From assembly GCA_043814605.1 (NCBI GenBank), contig JBDRJV010000010.1, forward strand, positions 1,340 to 65,339: 64,000 nt of DNA, given 5' to 3'. Shown here one piece after another: positions 1,473-49,088 of the stretch; the stretch's first letter is position 1, and the number at the start of each line of letters is the position of its first letter. The notes below the pieces were generated by a model. It was not told the DNA's origin. It did no database searches and saw only the letters and a program-made list of their open reading frames with translations. Position numbers and translations under genes: made by a program. The stretch comes from Candidatus Omnitrophota bacterium. Its GTDB lineage: Bacteria > Omnitrophota > Gorgyraeia > B26-G9.

Positions 1473-1508
1473 TTTAAATCACTTTTAGTTTATGTTATAA
1501 TACATACT

Positions 1509-2108
1509 ATGAAAAAAGGATTTACACTCCTAGAATTGTTGATTGGTATTGCAATTTTTGCAATTATTGCTGCTTGTGTATATTCAAGTTTATATTTAGG
1601 ACTTAAGGTTTTTAAGCAAGAAGAAAGCCGGGATGAACTTATGCAGCAAGCAATGCTGACCTTAGATAAATTAGCTAAAGATTTGCGTTGTGCATTTATC
1701 AACCCCAATAATGAACAAATAAAATTTATTGGTACAGATGCTAAAATTGACTTTTTTATTGTAAGTCCGGAATTAGATATTGAAAATACAGTTTTTTATT
1801 TAGAAGAAAATGAGGATTCAGATGTATTTTCATTGTTAATGTCAAAAACTAAGGTCCGGTATTTCGAGGGGGATGCAGAGGGAAAAAGTAAAATTAGTGT
1901 TATTAATAGAAGTATTAAAGAATTTAAATTAGCTTACTATGATCATGAAACTAAAGAGTGGTATGAGAACTGGCCTAGAGAACTGGAATTACCTAAATTA
2001 ATAAAAATTAAAATCAGTTTTGCCCAGAACTCAAATCAAGAAAATTTTTTAGATTTAGTTAAATATGTAGCTGTGCCAATTGCTCAAACTTTAGAATTTA
2101 CACGATAA
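1509..2108 (+). CDS. prepilin-type N-terminal cleavage/methylation domain pseudopilin
   Basis: N-terminus KKGFTLLELLIGIAIFAIIA is the class III signal peptide of type IV pilins/T2SS pseudopilins. Confidence 0.75.
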   Translation: MKKGFTLLELLIGIAIFAIIAACVYSSLYLGLKVFKQEESRDELMQQAMLTLDKLAKDLRCAFINPNNEQIKFIGTDAKIDFFIVSPELDIENTVFYLEENEDSDVFSLLMSKTKVRYFEGDAEGKSKISVINRSIKEFKLAYYDHETKEWYENWPRELELPKLIKIKISFAQNSNQENFLDLVKYVAVPIAQTLEFTR

Positions 2109-10507: not shown

Positions 10508-11248
10508 ATGAAATTAGAAGGTAAGGTTGCGGTTATTACTGGTGGAGCACAAGGCATTGGTAAGCAAATTGCGATCACATTAGCTAAAGAAGGAGCAAAT
10601 TGTGTAATCTGTGATGTGAATGAGGAAGAACTGCAAAAAGCCGCAACAGAAATTCAAACTCAAGGAGTAAAGTGTTTACCAGTAGTTTTAAATGTAACAA
10701 ATTTATCTCAATGCGAGCAAATGGTAAACAAAATTATTGACAAATTCAAAAAAATAGATATACTAATCAATAATGCAGGGATAACCCGAGACGGGTTATT
10801 TATTCGAATGCGTGAAGAAGACTGGGATTCAGTCATTGCTGTTAATTTGAAAGGGACTTTTAACTGCACCAAAGCTACCGTTAAAGTAATGCTTAAACAA
10901 AGAGCGGGAAGCATAGTTAATGTCGCTTCAATCATTGGACTTATGGGTAATATGGGTCAGGCTAATTATGCCGCATCTAAGGCTGGAATAATTGGTTTGA
11001 CGAAGAGTGTAGCAAAAGAAGTAGCTTCTCGTAATATTAATGTAAATGCTATTGCTCCTGGGTTTATTGAAACAAAAATGACTCAAGTTTTATCCGAAGA
11101 TGTAAAAACAGCAATGCTAAAACAGATTCCGTTGAATAGGTTTGGAAATTCAGAAGATGTAGCAAAATTAGTGTTATTTTTAGTCAGTGATGACGCAAGC
11201 TATATCACAGGCCAGGTAATTCAAATAGATGGCGGGATGTTGATGTAG
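10508..11248 (+). CDS. fabG: 3-oxoacyl-ACP reductase
   Basis: SDR family: TGGAQGIG, NNAG, YAASKAG catalytic motif. Confidence 0.9.
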   Translation: MKLEGKVAVITGGAQGIGKQIAITLAKEGANCVICDVNEEELQKAATEIQTQGVKCLPVVLNVTNLSQCEQMVNKIIDKFKKIDILINNAGITRDGLFIRMREEDWDSVIAVNLKGTFNCTKATVKVMLKQRAGSIVNVASIIGLMGNMGQANYAASKAGIIGLTKSVAKEVASRNINVNAIAPGFIETKMTQVLSEDVKTAMLKQIPLNRFGNSEDVAKLVLFLVSDDASYITGQVIQIDGGMLM

Positions 11249-11272
11249 CATCTTGAAAGGAGGAAGTAAAAA

Positions 11273-11515
11273 ATGGCAGTTGAAGATAAAGTGAAATCAA
11301 TAATTGTTGATCAGTTAGGAGTTAAAGCAGAGGAAGTAACAGCAACAGCTTCTTTTGTGGATGATTTAGGTGCTGATTCTCTGGATACAGTAGAGTTGGT
11401 AATGGCGCTGGAAGAAGAGTTTGGGATTGAGATTCCAGATGAAGATGCTGAGAAAATGACTACTGTAGGCGAAGCAATTAAATATATTGACAGCAAAAGC
11501 AGCAATAAAGAATAG
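11273..11515 (+). CDS. acpP: acyl carrier protein
   Basis: [20 protein letters not shown] phosphopantetheine-attachment motif. Confidence 0.95.
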
Positions 11516-11611
11516 AGAAATCAATATTAAATTATCCCGTTAAACATATATTTTAGAAAAAGAAGCCATAGAGAGGAAAACCTGGGAATTAGTTTCTCTG
11601 AATAAAATATT

Positions 11612-12850
11612 ATGAATAGAAGACGTGTAGTTGTTACAGGTGTGGGAACAGTAACACCTGTTGGTAATACAAAACAAGAATTTTGGAATGCTCTTTGTGA
11701 AGGGAAAAATGGCGCAGGGAAAGTTAGCTATTTTGATGTCTCAGAATTTTCTTCACAAATTGATGCGGAAGTAAAAAATTTTGATCCTACCTATTGTATT
11801 AATCCCAAAGAACTCAAACGCATGGATAGATTTGTCCAATTTGCGGTATGTGCAAGCAAAATGGCGTTTGATGATTCCGGGGTTAATTTAGACAAAGAAG
11901 ATCCTACCAGAATTGGAGTCCTTATTGGTACAGGAATTGGCGGGTTGCATGTTGTGGAAGAACAGCAGGTTACTTATATGAAAAAAGGCCCAAAACGCAT
12001 ATCGCCTTTTTTAATTCCGATGCTTATTGTTAATATGGCTCCGGGACAGGTATCGATAAGCTTAGGATTAAAAGGTCCTAATTCCTGCGTAACAACTGCT
12101 TGTGCTTCCGGCGGTCATTCCATTGGCGATGCATTTATTTTAATCCAAAGGGGTGATGCGGAAATGATGCTTGCTGGCGGAACAGAAAGCTGTATTACAC
12201 CTTTAGGTTTTGGCGGTTTTTGTGCAATTAAAGCATTAACAACAAGAAATGATGATCCTTTACATGCTTGTCGTCCTTTTGATAAGGAAAGAGATGGGTT
12301 TTTAATGGCAGAAGGTTCAGGGATTGTAATGCTTGAAGAATATGAGCATGCTAAAGCCAGAGGTGCGAATATTTATGCAGAAATAGTCGGATACGGCCAA
12401 AGCGGTGATGCTTATCATATTACTGCGCCTGACCCAACAGGAGATGGGGGAGCCAGATGTATGCGGAGTGCACTTAATGATGCTAATGTTAGTATCGAAG
12501 CTGTTGATTATATTAATGCACATGGGACATCTACTCCTATGAATGATAAGGTAGAAACTTTAGCAATTAAAAAAGTTTTTCAGGAATATGCTAAAAAAGT
12601 AGCGATAAGTTCGACAAAATCTATGACCGGTCATTTACTCGGAGCTGCCGGAGGCGTAGAAGCTGCAGCATGCGTTTTAGCAATTAAATATGGGATTATT
12701 CCTCCCACAATAAACTATGAGCATCCAGACCCGGATTGCGACCTTGATTATGTGCCGAATACAGCGAGAAAACAACCCGTAAATGTTGCGATATCTAATT
12801 CGCTGGGTTTTGGTGGGCATAATGTAACTTTAGTATTTAAAAAAGCTTAA
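11612..12850 (+). CDS. fabF: 3-oxoacyl-ACP synthase II
   Basis: KAS II motifs: active-site Cys (TACASG) and HGTST His motifs. 412 aa. Confidence 0.9.
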
Positions 12851-42910: not shown

Positions 42911-43375
42911 ATGGGGAAAATGGAAAAAAAGACAATTGCGACTAATAAAAAAGCTTTATATCAATATGATATTGCGGAGAAAATTGAAGCGGGGATTGAG
43001 CTTTGCGGTACAGAGGTTAAATCTTTAAGGCAGAACAAGTTAGATTTAAAAGACAGCTTTGCCCGGATTAATAATGGAGAAGTATTTTTACATAATTTAT
43101 ATATAAGTCCTTATGATAAAGGCAGTTATAATAATGTTGACCCCCGGCGTATAAGGAAACTTTTATTACATAAAGCCCAAATCAGTAAGCTGATTGGCAA
43201 AATTAATCAAAAAGGCTTTACATTAATTGCGATTAGTTTATACTTTAATGACAAAGGTAAAGCTAAGGTAAATTTGGCATTAGCCAAAGGGCGTAAACTT
43301 TATGATCAGCGGGATAAGATCAAGGATAAGGAAACTGAACAGCGTTTGCGTAAAATATCCAGTATCCGGAAATAA
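42911..43375 (+). CDS. smpB: SsrA-binding protein SmpB
   Basis: ALYQYDI...GIEL.GTEVKSLR and a C-terminal basic tail. It is adjacent to tmRNA. Confidence 0.85.
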   Translation: MGKMEKKTIATNKKALYQYDIAEKIEAGIELCGTEVKSLRQNKLDLKDSFARINNGEVFLHNLYISPYDKGSYNNVDPRRIRKLLLHKAQISKLIGKINQKGFTLIAISLYFNDKGKAKVNLALAKGRKLYDQRDKIKDKETEQRLRKISSIRK

Positions 43376-43545: not shown

Positions 43546-43974
43546 GGGGGTGAAAGGGTTCGACTTAAGTGGATTAAGTAAGAGCAGCATGTCGAGGTGG
43601 TCGGGAGGCCTCGTTAAACACCTGGCAAAAAAATAAACGCTAAAACTGAAGTTCCAGCTAGCGTGGATGCACTTCTTGAAAAAATCGGAACGGGCATTGC
43701 TCATCCGACATTTTCCGGAATGCTTCCAACACCAGTGTTGTTTTAAAATAAAACAACCCGCTTTTTTATCTGCGCCTGCGGGGTAGAAAAGCGTCATCAG
43801 CAGGATCGTCCCGCCGCCTAGCTTTTAGCGGGCGGGATTAAACCCTTAAAAGCTGCCTTTTGAAATACCCTGTTTGCTGGGGATTTTAAAAGAAAGATTT
43901 ATAAACAGACTAAACATGTAGATACTCTTATTGGTTGCTTAAGGACGCGAGTTCAATTCTCGCCACCTCCACCA
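43546..43974 (+). ncRNA. ssrA: tmRNA (ssrA)
   Basis: 5' end GGGGGTGAAAGGGTTCGAC and 3' tRNA-like end GGACGCGAGTTCAATTCTCGCCACCTCCACCA (T-arm + acceptor + CCA). smpB is immediately upstream. A canonical ALAA-type tag reading frame could not be identified by eye. Confidence 0.75.
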
Positions 43975-44034
43975 AATTTTCTTGCGAAAATTTCCACAGG
44001 AGAAAACGAAGTTTTCCCCTTATGGCGCTCGCCA
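43961..44034 (+). repeat. direct repeat copy 1: last 14 nt of tmRNA + about 60 nt trailer (two small hairpins)
   Basis: Near-identical to 44263-44336 (one mismatch in the first 56 nt). Confidence 0.8.
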
Positions 44035-44193
44035 TCATGCATTGGGCTCGCTGTAACCCCTTTCCAAATGGAATAGATCTTAGTCAAAGAAGAAGGGGAG
44101 TATCCCCCTCTTCTTTAGAAATCTGTACCCCCTATAAAGGAGTCGCTTCGCGACCTGGAATAATAGAGTTATGATTTTGGTGGGTTCTATGGT

Positions 44194-44219
44194 GTTGAAA
44201 ATTGATTTTTGTGATATAA
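44194..44219 (+). promoter_or_regulatory. extended -10 promoter (TGATATAAT) inside the segment between the direct repeats
   Basis: TGnTATAAT at 44211-44219 with TTGAAA upstream (short 14-nt spacer). It would drive a roughly 110-nt transcript ending at the copy-2 hairpin + T-run. Confidence 0.35.
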
Positions 44220-44262
44220 TACATACTGTTCAAGGAGTTATGGCGTTTGCAAGTAAGACATC

Positions 44263-44336
44263 CGCCACCTCTACCAAATTTTCTTGCGAAAATTTCCACA
44301 GGAGAAAACGAAGTTTTCTTTTTATGGCGTTCGTCT
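44263..44336 (+). repeat. direct repeat copy 2 (tmRNA 3'-end fragment CGCCACCTCTACCA + trailer), ends in hairpin + TTTTT
   Basis: See copy 1. Here the trailer hairpin GAAAAC-GAA-GTTTTC is followed by a T5 run (terminator-like). Confidence 0.8.
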
Positions 44337-46193
44337 CGCTGTTGCCGGGAGCATTTCTTCGATAAACTTCCATGATTCGGGGTACCAGCTTAATCCATTA
44401 ATTTCAAATTTATGAATATATTCTAAGTAGTTGTGGTTGTGGTTATTCCCGGCGAAATAAACAAAAAAATTCCGAGTAATCTGATTATTTTCATTAATAT
44501 CAAAAATAGAAGGATATAATATATCTGCTTGTATTTTTAATTCCTGGAAGATTGTCGGAGCAATATTATTGAGTCCTACCGGAGCATCAGAAACCTGTAG
44601 TTGAGTATTGGTTTTAAAAGGTTTAACGAGGATTAAAGGTAAAGCGCGGGAGATTTTGCATTCAAGGTTATTATAACTAAAATAATCTGATTTTTTTGAT
44701 GCGCCTATTTGTTCAAAGCCTGAGATTTCGCAATTAGAGCCATGGTCGCCGATAATAAAAATCAATGAATTATCATAAAGATTGTTTTCTTTAAGAATTT
44801 CTAAAAATTTTAAAGTTATTTTTAAATGTCCTTTAGCGCAGGAAATAAATGATTTTCTGGTTTGAGGCAAATTGTTATAATGAATTTTCAAGTTTTCATC
44901 TAGACATAACGGCGGGTGAAATCCACTTAGATGATAATATTTGAAAGTTGGCAGCGGACTGTCTAAAGATATATTATTAACTGCGTTTTGTGTAAACAGA
45001 GCAAAATCATTATTTAATGTGTTTTCCGAATAAATTATTTCATTGTGTAATTCTTCCGGATTATCTGGGAGTAGTTTTAAATCACAGCCTGTTTTAAAAG
45101 TTAGTATTTTTTGAATATTGTTCAAGGAGAAGATTCTTTTTAAAAACCAAGTGCGGTTATTGTAAATATATCTTCTAAAATAATGCGGCATTATTCTAAA
45201 TAATGCCGCATCGTATAATTGAATAATATCAAAGAATTCATCGTTGGCAGATGTTCGAACAGTATTTTCATTAGTTTTAGGCTTAGGATCGATCGTGTTT
45301 TTTATATAATTCGATGCTATTCTTTTATCAATTAATACCCTTACATAAGCGTACAAATCTACTAAAAATCCGTTTTCTTTCAGCTTTTTAGGAAGGCAGG
45401 AGCTAGATAAATAAGCTTTTTCAATAAATAAATCTATCGGCAGAGTATTATCATAATATTTACCAGTTAAAATTACAGGTGTAGAAAATTCTGTTACAGG
45501 AAAAGCTCCTAAAGCATTTCGGTAATAGGTGAAACCGGCAAAATTGTTTCTCATGGTTTTGTCGTGTTCAATTATTTCGTTAAACCAATCAGATTGAAAA
45601 CTGTCTAGAACAAGAATAATCACATTTTTTTCTTCTGAAAATCTGAATTTATTAGAAGAATCAATTGTGCATTCATGACGTTGTGCTATAGACGTATCAT
45701 TTTTGCTATTTATGTATGAAAATATAAGGGAAAATAACTGAATTAAAATTAAGATTATACTGGTTTTTTTTGCAAAACTGTAAACAAGATTTGTTTTTCG
45801 AGTGAGTAATGTAAAGGTAAGAATATAAACCCCAATATCAATAATCCCTCGATAATGAAATTTGCCCCAGTCAATGTGTTTACCGTCAAACAATCCGTAA
45901 TCCCAGACCAAAATATTAGCGTTAAACCAAAACAGAAAACCTAAGACAAATAAAGTGCTGATATTTTTTTTAAATCTGTCTATATTTTTATTGTATGCTG
46001 TTAATAAATAAAGTAAAAAAATTAATGTAATTGTTATTTTGAAACAGGTAAGTACTAATCTGAAAAAAGAAGAATAAAAATTGAAATTATTTAAGTTTGC
46101 CAGGTAGAGATGTAAGGGGACAAAGAAAAAAACTGTTAAAACAAAAAAACTTACTACAACTAAAGAATGTGCAAGTTTGTTCTCTTTATTCAC
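44322..46193 (-). CDS. LtaS/EptA-like sulfatase-family membrane transferase (polytopic N-terminus + periplasmic alkaline-phosphatase-fold domain)
   Basis: Five or more N-terminal TM helices. The IILVLDSFQSDWFN motif is equivalent to LtaS VVLESFQ. The region DHGS...IFIIGDHG is typical of the sulfatase superfamily. Confidence 0.55.
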   Translation of the reverse strand: MNKENKLAHSLVVVSFFVLTVFFFVPLHLYLANLNNFNFYSSFFRLVLTCFKITITLIFLLYLLTAYNKNIDRFKKNISTLFVLGFLFWFNANILVWDYGLFDGKHIDWGKFHYRGIIDIGVYILTFTLLTRKTNLVYSFAKKTSIILILIQLFSLIFSYINSKNDTSIAQRHECTIDSSNKFRFSEEKNVIILVLDSFQSDWFNEIIEHDKTMRNNFAGFTYYRNALGAFPVTEFSTPVILTGKYYDNTLPIDLFIEKAYLSSSCLPKKLKENGFLVDLYAYVRVLIDKRIASNYIKNTIDPKPKTNENTVRTSANDEFFDIIQLYDAALFRIMPHYFRRYIYNNRTWFLKRIFSLNNIQKILTFKTGCDLKLLPDNPEELHNEIIYSENTLNNDFALFTQNAVNNISLDSPLPTFKYYHLSGFHPPLCLDENLKIHYNNLPQTRKSFISCAKGHLKITLKFLEILKENNLYDNSLIFIIGDHGSNCEISGFEQIGASKKSDYFSYNNLECKISRALPLILVKPFKTNTQLQVSDAPVGLNNIAPTIFQELKIQADILYPSIFDINENNQITRNFFVYFAGNNHNHNYLEYIHKFEINGLSWYPESWKFIEEMLPATARRTP

Positions 46194-47574
46194 AGGATTC
46201 CTTTTGTTTAAATAAATAAATTTTTCTTAAGGATTGGGTTATGTCTTTACACTTTTGCAGTTCAAAATACCGCTGAAAAACATTTTCAAATTGCGATTGA
46301 TAGTAATCGTCAAAGATATCTTTACGGTCCTTAAGCATTTTTTCAACTTGGGAATCATTTTTGGGAATAAATTCAATGATTAGCCATTTACAGATCTGGC
46401 TAAAGAATTTAGCTAAATTCTCAAAACAGATATTATCAGTAATTCTTAAGTGGTGCATTAATCCTAGCACGAAAACCATATCTGCGGGGCCTCGTTTAAC
46501 TAAAGAATCTCTTTCTTGATTAGCCCAGCCCAGGCTAGGGCTGGGATTGGCAATATCAACAACCAGAGGTAAAATATTTTTTAGATTAGCATTTTGACAT
46601 TGATGATAATTCTTTTCAATGCAGGATTCATTTTTATCTAAAGATAAAGTAAAAATTCCTTTTTCCTGGGCAATTTGGCTAAATATCCCGGTATTTGCTC
46701 CTAAGTCCCAAATGTTTTCAGGATTAGTTTGGGCTAAAAAATTATTAACTAGTTGCTGTTTATTTTTTAAAGCCTCAGGAGTATAACTATTTTGTTCATT
46801 ATAATAATTATCCCAATAAGTTGCTTGAGGCTTCCAATATAAATTTTTTACAGTGTTTTCTAGATTATCAATTAGTGCGCAGAGAGATTTTTTACTTATT
46901 TTTTGCCCAGAAGAATTAATTTCTTTTTGAAAAAATATATTTTGTGTTTTTGCATGCAGGTGAATATGGGTTAATAATGAAAAATTAAAATAACTTGAAA
47001 AAGGAAGCAGTTTACTGGCGAAAGCTAAAGGAACTCCGTCAATAAAAGACTTAAAAAAAGAAGTGCATTCTGGCCCAGCGTATTTTATTAAAGCTAACGG
47101 GGCTAAAAAATGCTGTATAAATTGTTTGTAACCTGGCCACAATTGATTATTTTTGTATTTTTCAAAGGAGAGAGTATCAATTAAAATTGGATGGCAATCT
47201 TTAAATTGAATATTATAAACGCTAGAGTCTTTTAAAATCATGCCAAATTCTAGAGCTATTTTTTGAACTTTTAAAGTTAATAATGCAGCATCTTTTAACT
47301 GGCTAAAACACCATTCGTAAGGGTAAGATACAAAAGGGATTTTTTCCGGCTGAATAATTTTATAATGGCTGGGCAGAGAACTAATATTTAAAGAAACTTC
47401 CTGATGAGGAATGAGTAAATTTTCCTGACTTAGCTGTGTATAGAGTCCGGATTGCATTAAATGATCATAATTTTCTTTATAATCATAATTAATTTGGCGG
47501 TATAAGACATGGTTATGATATAAAATAAAACCGCTAGGATCACGGAATGAGGCTGAATGTATTTTATTTACCAT
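46186..47574 (-). CDS. fusion of kinase-like (choline/aminoglycoside phosphotransferase-type) domain and class I SAM methyltransferase domain
   Basis: The N-terminal half has a Brenner-like catalytic loop (ILKDSSVYNIQF...ILIDTLSFE). The C-terminal half has MTase motif I (IWDLGANTGIF) and downstream acidic motifs. Confidence 0.45.
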   Translation of the reverse strand: MVNKIHSASFRDPSGFILYHNHVLYRQINYDYKENYDHLMQSGLYTQLSQENLLIPHQEVSLNISSLPSHYKIIQPEKIPFVSYPYEWCFSQLKDAALLTLKVQKIALEFGMILKDSSVYNIQFKDCHPILIDTLSFEKYKNNQLWPGYKQFIQHFLAPLALIKYAGPECTSFFKSFIDGVPLAFASKLLPFSSYFNFSLLTHIHLHAKTQNIFFQKEINSSGQKISKKSLCALIDNLENTVKNLYWKPQATYWDNYYNEQNSYTPEALKNKQQLVNNFLAQTNPENIWDLGANTGIFSQIAQEKGIFTLSLDKNESCIEKNYHQCQNANLKNILPLVVDIANPSPSLGWANQERDSLVKRGPADMVFVLGLMHHLRITDNICFENLAKFFSQICKWLIIEFIPKNDSQVEKMLKDRKDIFDDYYQSQFENVFQRYFELQKCKDITQSLRKIYLFKQKESCE

Positions 47575-47803
47575 CTAAATGTTTATTTTTCCGAGAAAAA
47601 AAAGATTTAAGAAAAGATTTATATTTATTAAAAATCAATTTTAAAACAAAAAAACCACTGAGTAATCCGGCGATTATTAGCTGAAATAAATTGCTGCCGC
47701 TACCAGGATCAAGATAAGCATAACTTGTTTTAGTGAAAACAGTTATATAAATGAAAATAAAAGTAATATAAAATAACATGGTTTTTATTGGTTTCTCATG
47801 CAT
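47564..47803 (-). CDS. small membrane protein (2 TM)
   Basis: 79 aa. Overlaps the start of the downstream gene. Hydrophobic. Confidence 0.3.
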   Translation of the reverse strand: MHEKPIKTMLFYITFIFIYITVFTKTSYAYLDPGSGSNLFQLIIAGLLSGFFVLKLIFNKYKSFLKSFFSRKNKHLDGK

Positions 47804-47972
47804 TCTTAATTTTCTTTTGCAAATAATCTCTTCTTATTATATAGAAATATTGTTAAAATTCAAACAGGAAATTTTATGATCATTAAATTAGGTTTTTCTG
47901 TTGGCAAAAATAGTACTTAGTGATACAATACTACGCATAACACTAATCCGCTAATTAAAATAGAATTAAAAG

Positions 47973-49088
47973 ATGTTTAAAAATAAATATAAATATAATT
48001 TGACAGTTTTAATATTTTTTTCAGTTATTCTTTCTCTAACTCTAAGTGGCTGTGCTGGTTCGGGAAAAACAAGAGCATCTTTGGGTAAAATAACGGAAAG
48101 ATCAGTTAAAATTAACGGAAAACGTTATGTTTCTGTTTTTGAAATTTGTAAAAATCAAAATATTTCCTATGATTGGGACGGATTTTCTAATATTATTACT
48201 TTAAAAAAAGAAGGTATTCAGATAAAGCTTTGTCTGGGCAGTTCGCTGATACTGTATGCAGATCAAGTGCATGATTTGGAATCACCGGTGCGAGTTTATA
48301 ACGGTTTAATTATGGCCCCGGATTCTTTTGTAAAATTTTTTCTGATAGAAAAAGAAATAATTCCGCCAAAAGAAGCAAAACCAGGTATTTTTAAAATTAA
48401 AAAAATAGTTATCGACGCTGGCCACGGGGGAAAAGATCCCGGAGCTGTTGGTAAAAGTGGCATAAAAGAGAAAGACATTGTTTTAGATCTTGCCCAGCGT
48501 TTAGGTAAAGAGCTTAAAAAACAAGGCATTAATGTAGTTTTAACTCGGAATACGGATATTTTCCATTCTTTGCAAAAACGCAGTCAGATTGCAAATGAAG
48601 AAAATGCAGATTTTTTTATCAGTATCCATGCCAATGCTGCGCAAACATCATCGGCACAGGGGTTTGAAGCCTATTATTTATCTGTAGATCATGATGATTT
48701 TTCTAAAGCTGTGCAAATCAGAGAAAATGCCGCAATAAAATTTGAAGACAATACAGAATACCAATATTCAACAGATTTAAATGCAACACTTTGGGACATG
48801 ATTCTTTCCGAAAATAGGATTGAATCCATAAAGATGGCAAAATTTGTGGCTGACGAATTAAAAAGAAATTTAAAATTAAATACGCGCTATATCAAAGGTG
48901 CTAATTTTTATGTTTTAAAAGGCGCAAAAATGCCGGCGGTTCTTTTAGAAGCCGGGTACTTGACAAATTCTCAGGAAGCCGCCAGGCTTAATAATGCATA
49001 TTATCGCCAGATGTTGGCCGAGGCAATTAGTTCCGGGATTATAAAATATAAAAGAACGTTTGAATTAAATAATGGGTTTAGCCGATGA
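47973..49088 (+). CDS. N-acetylmuramoyl-L-alanine amidase (Amidase_3, AmiC-like) lipoprotein
   Basis: Lipobox LTLSGC. IVIDAGHGGKDPGAVG and the zinc-binding motif of Amidase_3. Confidence 0.8.
   Translation: MFKNKYKYNLTVLIFFSVILSLTLSGCAGSGKTRASLGKITERSVKINGKRYVSVFEICKNQNISYDWDGFSNIITLKKEGIQIKLCLGSSLILYADQVHDLESPVRVYNGLIMAPDSFVKFFLIEKEIIPPKEAKPGIFKIKKIVIDAGHGGKDPGAVGKSGIKEKDIVLDLAQRLGKELKKQGINVVLTRNTDIFHSLQKRSQIANEENADFFISIHANAAQTSSAQGFEAYYLSVDHDDFSKAVQIRENAAIKFEDNTEYQYSTDLNATLWDMILSENRIESIKMAKFVADELKRNLKLNTRYIKGANFYVLKGAKMPAVLLEAGYLTNSQEAARLNNAYYRQMLAEAISSGIIKYKRTFELNNGFSR

Follow-up and report, generated by a model that had tools for sequence, protein, structure and literature searches.

A repeated ssrA 3' end in a Candidatus Omnitrophota genome and its possible origin by layered insertions

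In a metagenome-assembled Candidatus Omnitrophota genome, the transfer-messenger RNA (tmRNA) gene ssrA is followed by a second copy of its own 3' end and trailer. The two copies of this 71-base repeat enclose a spacer segment, called X in the following, and behind the second copy a minus-strand operon of three genes stands between ssrA and an amidase gene. This structure probably, though by no means securely, reflects a tandem build-up of recombinase-less insertions at the ssrA attachment site in two layers—an older one that is also found in a relative, and a younger one that is specific to the DNA analysed here, a 64-kb window of the genome. The locus is a fresh example, in a little-studied phylum, of a known insertion hot-spot phenomenon and not a new system.

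The window was compared with the ssrA regions of 12 related lineages (L001, L002, L003, L076, L078, L080/81, L082, L098/99, L100, L104/105, L107, and L108). All of them are about equally distant from it, with tmRNA identities of 77–81% and SmpB identities of 71–78%. Coordinates are collected in Table 1.

Table 1. Positions of the features discussed, in the window unless another locus is named
Feature	Position	Strand	Description
smpB	42911–43375	+	Left anchor of the conserved gene order; Pfam SmpB, E = 7e-55
ssrA (tmRNA gene)	43546–43974	+	Putative insertion target; ARAGORN; Rfam RF00023, 194.7 bits, full length
Repeat copy 1	43961–44031	+	Final 14 ssrA bases (43961–43974) and 57-base trailer with two hairpins
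Segment X	44032–44262	+	Conserved spacer; strong hairpin 44086–44116, small hairpin 44142–44154, promoter-like site, leader
Promoter-like site in X	44195–44220	+	TTGAAA, 14 bases, TATAAT, TG at -15/-14; TGATATAAT at 44212–44220
Core of copy 2	44263–44276	+	14-base copy of the ssrA 3' end, common to L108; window CGCCACCTCTACCA, L108 CGCCACTTCCACTG at the homologous position
Trailer part of copy 2	44277–44333	+	Window-specific; putative left edge of the operon insertion; overlaps the final 4 sulfatase-like codons
Sulfatase-like/LTA-synthase-family membrane protein (operon gene 3)	44322–46193	-	Pfam Sulfatase, E = 5e-11
Methyltransferase-like protein (operon gene 2)	46186–47574	-	Weak Methyltransf_23 match, under the Pfam cut-off
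Small membrane protein (operon gene 1)	47564–47803	-	Open reading frame; homologue in L082
Second promoter-like site	47901–47929	+	TTGGCA, 17 bases, TACAAT; TGATACAAT at 47921–47929, in front of the amidase
N-acetylmuramoyl-L-alanine amidase	47973–49088	+	Right anchor of the conserved gene order; Pfam Amidase_3, E = 2.5e-58
Large serine recombinase of L002	5002–6708 (L002)	-	568 amino acids, adjoining ssrA and reading into the ssrA end; Resolvase, Recombinase, and Zn_ribbon_recom domains

The repeat, its spacer, and the operon behind it

As the sequence-only reading of this DNA had claimed, the ssrA 3' end and the adjoining trailer are duplicated almost identically. The copies at 43961–44031 and 44263–44333 match at 66 of 71 positions without a gap, start 302 bases apart, and are the only two in the 64 kb (21- and 25-base probes, ≤3 mismatches)—a two-match outcome that was reached in 0 of 100 shuffles. 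The repeat begins with CGCC in the 3' strand of the tmRNA T-stem, and fold prediction gives the 57-base trailer the two small hairpins that had been proposed for it. Gapped extension of the repeat is not significant, as 365 of 1000 shuffles score as high upstream and 67 of 1000 downstream, and no alignment between the tmRNA body and X was obtained. The sharp edges of the repeat, together with the lack of alignment between tmRNA body and X, rule out a simple tandem duplication of a longer unit.

Every one of the five differences between the copies is a C in copy 1 and a T in copy 2. Since the homologous trailers of L108 and L001 share the C of copy 1 at all five positions, copy 2 appears to be the decaying copy. 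The trailer of copy 1 is 94.7% identical to that of L108 and, over 58 bases, 96.6% identical to that of L001, compared with tmRNA gene identities of about 80%. Copy 2 beyond its core shows 41% identity to L108, i.e., the trailer part is absent there. The hairpin with which copy 2 had been said to end does exist (GGAGAAAAC-GAA-GTTTTCTTT, followed by TTAT), but the run of five U described behind it lies mostly within the stem, and this stem holds just 2 G-C pairs.

Two adjacent hairpins are a common trait of ssrA trailers: they are seen in the window (43975–44031) and in L001, L076, L078, L082, L098, L100, and L104, where the first hairpin begins either inside the CCA end or right at it. The trailer sequence types are distributed among the lineages at odds with tmRNA similarity, and the T-arm's reverse complement, GGGAATTGAACCC, recurs in several trailers. 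A short motif, TTATGGCG(T/C)T, occurs three times in the window, inside X just 5' of copy 2 (44238–44247) and at the right ends of the repeat copies (44321–44330 and 44020–44027); its TGGCG could pair with CGCCA of the core.

The 231 bases that separate the repeat copies had been read as a possible decayed island with its own promoter. This does not agree with the situation in L108, where X has a counterpart at 12382–12614 with 84.2% identity over 234 bases (E = 2e-66). There, the normal spacer between ssrA and the amidase consists of trailer, X, CGCCACTTCCACTG, a leader of about 40 bases, and the amidase start, without the trailer part of copy 2 and without the operon. Hence, X is on this evidence conserved spacer DNA and not a window-specific decayed island, and X and the 14-base copy of the ssrA end are by the same comparison older than the window's lineage. 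The conservation is block-wise, with 89% identity on the left (both hairpins), 53% in the middle, and 86% on the right (promoter-like site and leader). L108 is otherwise no nearer to the window than the other relatives are, and high similarity begins only at the ssrA end: the smpB DNA is 66.5% identical, the tmRNA gene 79.8%, and tmRNA positions 301–380 66%, while the spacer 5' of ssrA is barely alignable (17 of 500 shuffles score as high). X is present in 2 of the 13 lineages, the window's and L108; the sister of L108, L001 (tmRNA 90% identical), retains the trailer and lacks most of X. Neither blastn nor exact-pattern scans found X-like sequence in the other fetched loci, the remaining window, phage records, plasmid records, or viral contigs.

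The intervening DNA contains no integrase, as had been stated before: no open reading frame for a recombinase lies within 44032–44262. Three further identities of X were tried and rejected. A remnant of a recombinase or other gene gave no match by tblastx and tblastn to all fetched loci and the L002 recombinase; a window-specific orphan without relatives is overturned by the L108 spacer; and a small open reading frame through promoter and leader (MAFA.KTSATST) was not accepted as coding, the codon changes between window and L108 being 5 synonymous and 5 nonsynonymous. The left flank of ssrA varies as well, since in L108—and in that lineage only—a DegT/aminotransferase gene (10554–11720) is located between smpB and ssrA.

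The right block of X bears the promoter-like element TGATATAAT. An extended -10 element at 44211 that reads into copy 2 had been proposed, and an element facing copy 2 is indeed there. Its position, however, is 44212–44220, and what had been taken as the segment's own promoter occupies the expected amidase promoter position in L108, where it is kept about 80 bases 5' of the amidase ATG. Hence, TGATATAAT is most likely the amidase promoter, which the operon insertion would have separated from the amidase in the window. TGATAYAAT-type sites are also located 5' of the amidase in L001 and L107 and at window position 47921. A sigma-70 scan made no call at the TGATATAAT site because TTGAAA lies just 14 bases upstream, and the motif by itself is not rare in this AT-rich window, with TGNTATAAT observed 8 times for 5.9 expected.

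A specific relationship of the X promoter to amidase promoters was rejected: of the 41 TGNTAYAAT regions, an unrelated pseudopilin promoter matches it best, and the two amidase promoters in second and third place are suggestive only. At window positions 1493–1511, TGTTATAATACATACT directly abuts the start codon (ATG) of a pseudopilin-like gene, whose mRNA may therefore be leaderless; the 13-mer TATAATACATACT is found here and, in identical form, at 44215–44227.

The minus-strand operon of three genes at 44322–47803 is as previously described, and the suggestion that it is cargo is supported by gene order. In six lineages (L001, L080/81, L098/99, L100, L104/105, and L108), ssrA is followed at a distance of 56 to 340 bases by amidase–murI–queD–queC–queE–queF. 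The window has its amidase–murI–que genes from 47973 onward, and about 3.9 kb of additional DNA separates its amidase from ssrA. Because the amidase genes stand directly behind ssrA in these six lineages, the operon is regarded as a putative insertion, i.e., as DNA that is extra relative to the conserved order. Its G+C content is the lowest of all 3.5-kb stretches in the window (30.1% versus 33.7%; lowest 2%); by tetranucleotide distance it is no outlier, 30% of windows being equally far from the average.

Among the loci compared, the best homologues of the operon proteins are at most 51% identical. A homologous three-gene operon lies in the same orientation directly behind ssrA in L082, and another homologue is found elsewhere in L101, adjoining hipBA; in both lineages a 50% identical methyltransferase-like homologue adjoins a sulfatase-like gene. 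The sulfatase-like protein is full length relative to its homologues, and its final four codons reach into copy 2. Its best nonself homologue is 42% identical, and a look-up of the exact protein sequence returned no record. The sulfatase-like/methyltransferase operon is thereby flagged as accessory, presumably horizontally moved cargo for envelope modification.

The ssrA 3' end as an insertion site in related lineages

In six lineages (L002, L003, L076, L078, L082, and L107), the content behind ssrA differs. The large serine recombinase gene of L002 adjoins ssrA in such a way that its final 12 codons run antisense to the ssrA 3' end and the reading frame hence spans the insertion junction; it is followed by a Cro/CI-type helix-turn-helix gene, and the junction sequence differs from that of the window. 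The same site holds AbiE, a restriction S (specificity) subunit, and Fic in L003; GIY-YIG, Gp49, MazG, and helicases in L078; and a 1.8-kb insert before the amidase in L107. Within this last insert (11315–11979), direct repeats roughly 60 bases long (94% and 79% identical) and about 580–606 bases apart flank a membrane open reading frame of 171 amino acids and may mark a small mobile unit.

Two relatives carry ssrA-end repeats of their own, of which none is expected by chance. In L104, a 21/21 repeat that starts in the T-loop (11022–11042) is located 151 bases 3' of the real end and encloses a noncoding segment of 130 bases. In L076, a degenerate 22/28 copy of the T-arm and acceptor end (11232–11259) follows the real one after 259 bases, and behind it stand genes outside the conserved order, namely for a Zn-ribbon membrane protein, a DOT1-like methyltransferase, and CNNM. 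Also, viral contigs bear copies of 25–30 bases of the conserved ssrA end that start at the T-arm and hence look like attP sites. Taken together, the ssrA 3' end is by all appearances an insertion hot spot in these Omnitrophota relatives, and Omnitrophota joins the groups in which the tmRNA gene serves as a busy landing site for foreign DNA. The earlier proposal that the repeat is an attL/attR-type footprint of ssrA-targeting elements gains from these findings: site content varies in nearly every lineage, a recombinase sits at ssrA in L002, and L104 and L076 have ssrA-end repeats. A conserved structural duplication with the same arrangement throughout is not what the relatives display, as X occurs in 1 of the 12 and the neighbouring content is highly variable.

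Three groups of known systems invite comparison. Tyrosine-integrase islands and prophages in tmRNA genes use attP sites with the part of ssrA from the T-arm to CCA. The general attL/attR logic and the attP-like ssrA-end copies in viral contigs are shared with them; however, the identity block of the window reaches unusually far into the trailer and only a short way into the gene, and no tyrosine integrase was seen at the ssrA locus in any relative examined.

For the cis-mobilizable elements (CIMEs) of the ICESt1 family, a model has been described in which integration at tRNA/tmRNA attachment sites is followed by decay and accretion in tandem (PMC5704250). An intact target gene end with direct repeats, an inter-repeat segment without integration genes, and cargo not related to mobility are found here as well. 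On the contrary, the inner segment of the window has only about 290 bases, is noncoding, and doubles as the terminator/promoter spacer of its flanking genes. Moreover, no related autonomous element with the window's arms was found, and the putative outer insertion lacks a detectable distal repeat.

The ssrA islands of Dehalococcoides carry a serine recombinase gene (DsiB) next to attL/ssrA on the reverse strand and 20-bp repeats at their borders, and they occur in tandem, several of them without integration genes (PMC3146451). The ssrA target, the direct repeats of its 3' end, the tandem islands of which some lack integration modules, the disrupted gene order, and the lower G+C content recur at the present locus or its relatives. 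A counterpart of dsiB, the 568-amino-acid large serine recombinase that adjoins ssrA on the reverse strand, is found in L002 and not in the window, and this likeness is one of position. The window differs further in its repeat, which begins at a later point, within the 3' half of the T-stem, and reaches 57 bases beyond the gene, in the lack of a recombinase or integration module, and in phylum and cargo. Closer to the Dehalococcoides type is the repeat of L104, with its 21 bp starting in the T-loop.

Proposed origin and competing explanations

In the favoured reading, the older layer would be a recombinase-less segment of about 290 bases—the 57-base trailer and X—between the intact ssrA end and its 14-base copy, which is also present in L108. 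In the window and in L108 alike, trailer and X lie between the ssrA end, to their left, and the 14-base core, to their right, and integration or transfer genes are lacking. Such a segment, bounded by the target end and its repeat, bears the apparent signature of a decayed integrated or non-autonomous element. It would carry trailer/terminator hairpins for ssrA as well as an outward promoter that reads into the amidase–murI–que genes. The locus might thus be a clear case of layered scars absorbed into gene regulation, as the scar is predicted to hold both the ssrA terminator and the promoter of the amidase operon.

The younger, window-specific layer would be a block of about 3.7 kb that entered precisely at the 14-base copy and comprised the second trailer copy, the minus-strand three-gene envelope operon, and the second amidase promoter. 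What is seen is that the end of the core is directly followed by the operon block, which opens with the trailer copy. The repeat would have been lengthened from 14 to 71 bases because the incoming DNA started with the trailer that follows ssrA. Catalysis might have been provided in trans by a site-specific recombinase, such as a large serine recombinase of the L002 type. As an outcome, the X promoter would be cut off from the amidase and now face copy 2, whose hairpins probably terminate both a short transcript from this promoter and the converging operon.

Several observations weigh against this two-layer origin. A recombinase gene is absent in and near the structure, and tblastn finds none in the window that resembles the L002 recombinase. 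At the operon's right edge, no third ssrA-end copy was found by probes with up to 3 mismatches, whole-window local alignment, or an 18-mer scan of the amidase leader, where the best match of 8/18 equals background; hence, the second layer would be without its expected distal repeat. The two promoter regions of the window, taken as homologous right arms, are only weakly alike (3 of 500 and 22 of 1000 shuffles score as high), and this similarity is partly accounted for by the promoter consensus. The order of the layers depends on one relative, L108. The block-wise conservation of X, with its 53% middle block, suggests long-term selection and not recent mobility, so that layer 1 may be an old fixed scar. 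Furthermore, strain-level relatives were not found—the window's SmpB is identical to that of a Candidatus Omnitrophota metagenome-assembled genome, and the next SmpB is 77–78% identical—and hence no occupied/empty polymorphism was seen.

The opposite order of events, which had been the main proposal of the sequence-only reading, appears unlikely, yet it deserves to be taken seriously. Here, an ancestor with the order ssrA–trailer–operon–amidase would have received trailer and X, about 300 bp, at its ssrA end, whereby the native 14 bases and trailer were displaced and became copy 2. An independent integration in the L108 lineage, into a different native flank, would have left a repeat of 14 bases only. 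This account needs just the two ssrA-end copies that are seen and therefore fits the missing third copy, and the decay of copy 2 is what is expected of a displaced native end. That an ssrA–trailer–operon arrangement exists is evident from L082. The patchy occurrence of X agrees with it too, being confined to 2 of 13 lineages and mostly lacking in L001, the close sister of L108, and so does the similarity of X between window and L108, which equals that of the tmRNA genes. On the other side, a 300-bp element is required to move between lineages with a trailer almost identical to that of the recipient, and the saturated middle block of X speaks against a recent transfer. Furthermore, the X promoter stands exactly where L108 needs an amidase promoter, which makes X look like resident regulatory DNA, and no further copies of X turned up in viral contigs, phages, plasmids, or fetched loci.

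More speculative, and rather improbable in our view, is the idea that trailer and X form a self-contained miniature integrative element of about 300 bp, a recombinase-dependent counterpart of miniature inverted-repeat transposable elements, that spreads between Omnitrophota lineages by means of ssrA-specific recombinases acting in trans. With it would come a replacement terminator for ssrA and an outward promoter that keeps amidase–murI–que expressed; cargo such as the envelope operon would travel on larger relatives that share its arms.

Slightly less credible still is an origin without any site-specific recombinase, by unequal or microhomology-mediated exchange between the 14-base copy in the amidase leader and a real ssrA end, either on sister chromosomes or on imported ssrA–trailer–operon DNA. 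This exchange would have joined a second trailer and the operon behind X. Copy 2 as copy 1 plus later decay fits an origin from the same population, neither a recombinase nor a third repeat is present, and the repeat stops exactly where the operon DNA starts, as if it were the part common to two alleles. However, imported homologous DNA would be far likelier to recombine in the usual way within ssrA or smpB than by a crossover in 14 bases, and after a simple tandem duplication copy 2 should be followed by a second X, which is not there. The recurring ssrA-end repeats of L104 and L076 and the serine recombinase of L002 at the same site are also left unexplained.

There is little to recommend the view that the arrangement is maintained for a functional small RNA, which we hold to be a slim possibility. 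The promoter at 44212 would give a transcript of about 100 nucleotides, with a copy of the tmRNA end and trailer as its 3' part. This RNA might vie with the tmRNA for processing factors or serve as an antisense RNA against the end of the operon that converges on it. The promoter-like site is intact and kept in L108, copy 2 supplies two hairpins and a U-rich tail, and a leader hairpin, GGAG...GCCAC-YUCY, is kept in both window and L108 through G-C to G-U changes. In L108, however, the same promoter and leader continue into the amidase, which makes the short RNA a likely by-product of the insertion, and copy 2 is gathering C-to-T changes, one of them in the ssrA-derived part. The predicted fold is not exceptional (z-score -1.6; 12 of 200 shuffles fold equally well), and 0 of 83 predicted pairs in the two-sequence alignment of window and L108 have changes on both sides. 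The tmRNA is the only Rfam match, other hits being far under the thresholds, and L076 and L104 have no such promoter. A regulatory RNA of about 110 nucleotides from the internal promoter, as had been suggested earlier, is hence most simply read as a truncated amidase leader that runs into a duplicated terminator. As such a by-product of an orphaned promoter, an RNA spanning 44226 to about 44325 is plausible, and the locus cautions that short units of orphan promoter and terminator beside ssrA may mimic small-RNA genes without having been selected for that role.

Pairing of the leader GGAG and AUG with the ssrA-like core is possible in the window as well as in L108, with G-C to G-U changes preserving it.

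An assembly artefact, i.e., strain variants falsely joined in the metagenome assembly from which the window stems, can be set aside, because the X-to-core junction recurs in L108, a different and independent data set; moreover, the copies differ at 5 positions, and a false join within the repeat would not yield a duplication attached to 14 ssrA bases and X.

The tmRNA tag

The tag predicted inside ssrA (43639–43746) is AKTEVPASVDALLEKIGTGIAHPTFSGMLPTPVLF; with 35 amino acids, it is apparently unusually long. ARAGORN reports APAG as the tag for the window, which looks mis-called since the same program gives homologous tags of 25–29 amino acids in L002 and L107.

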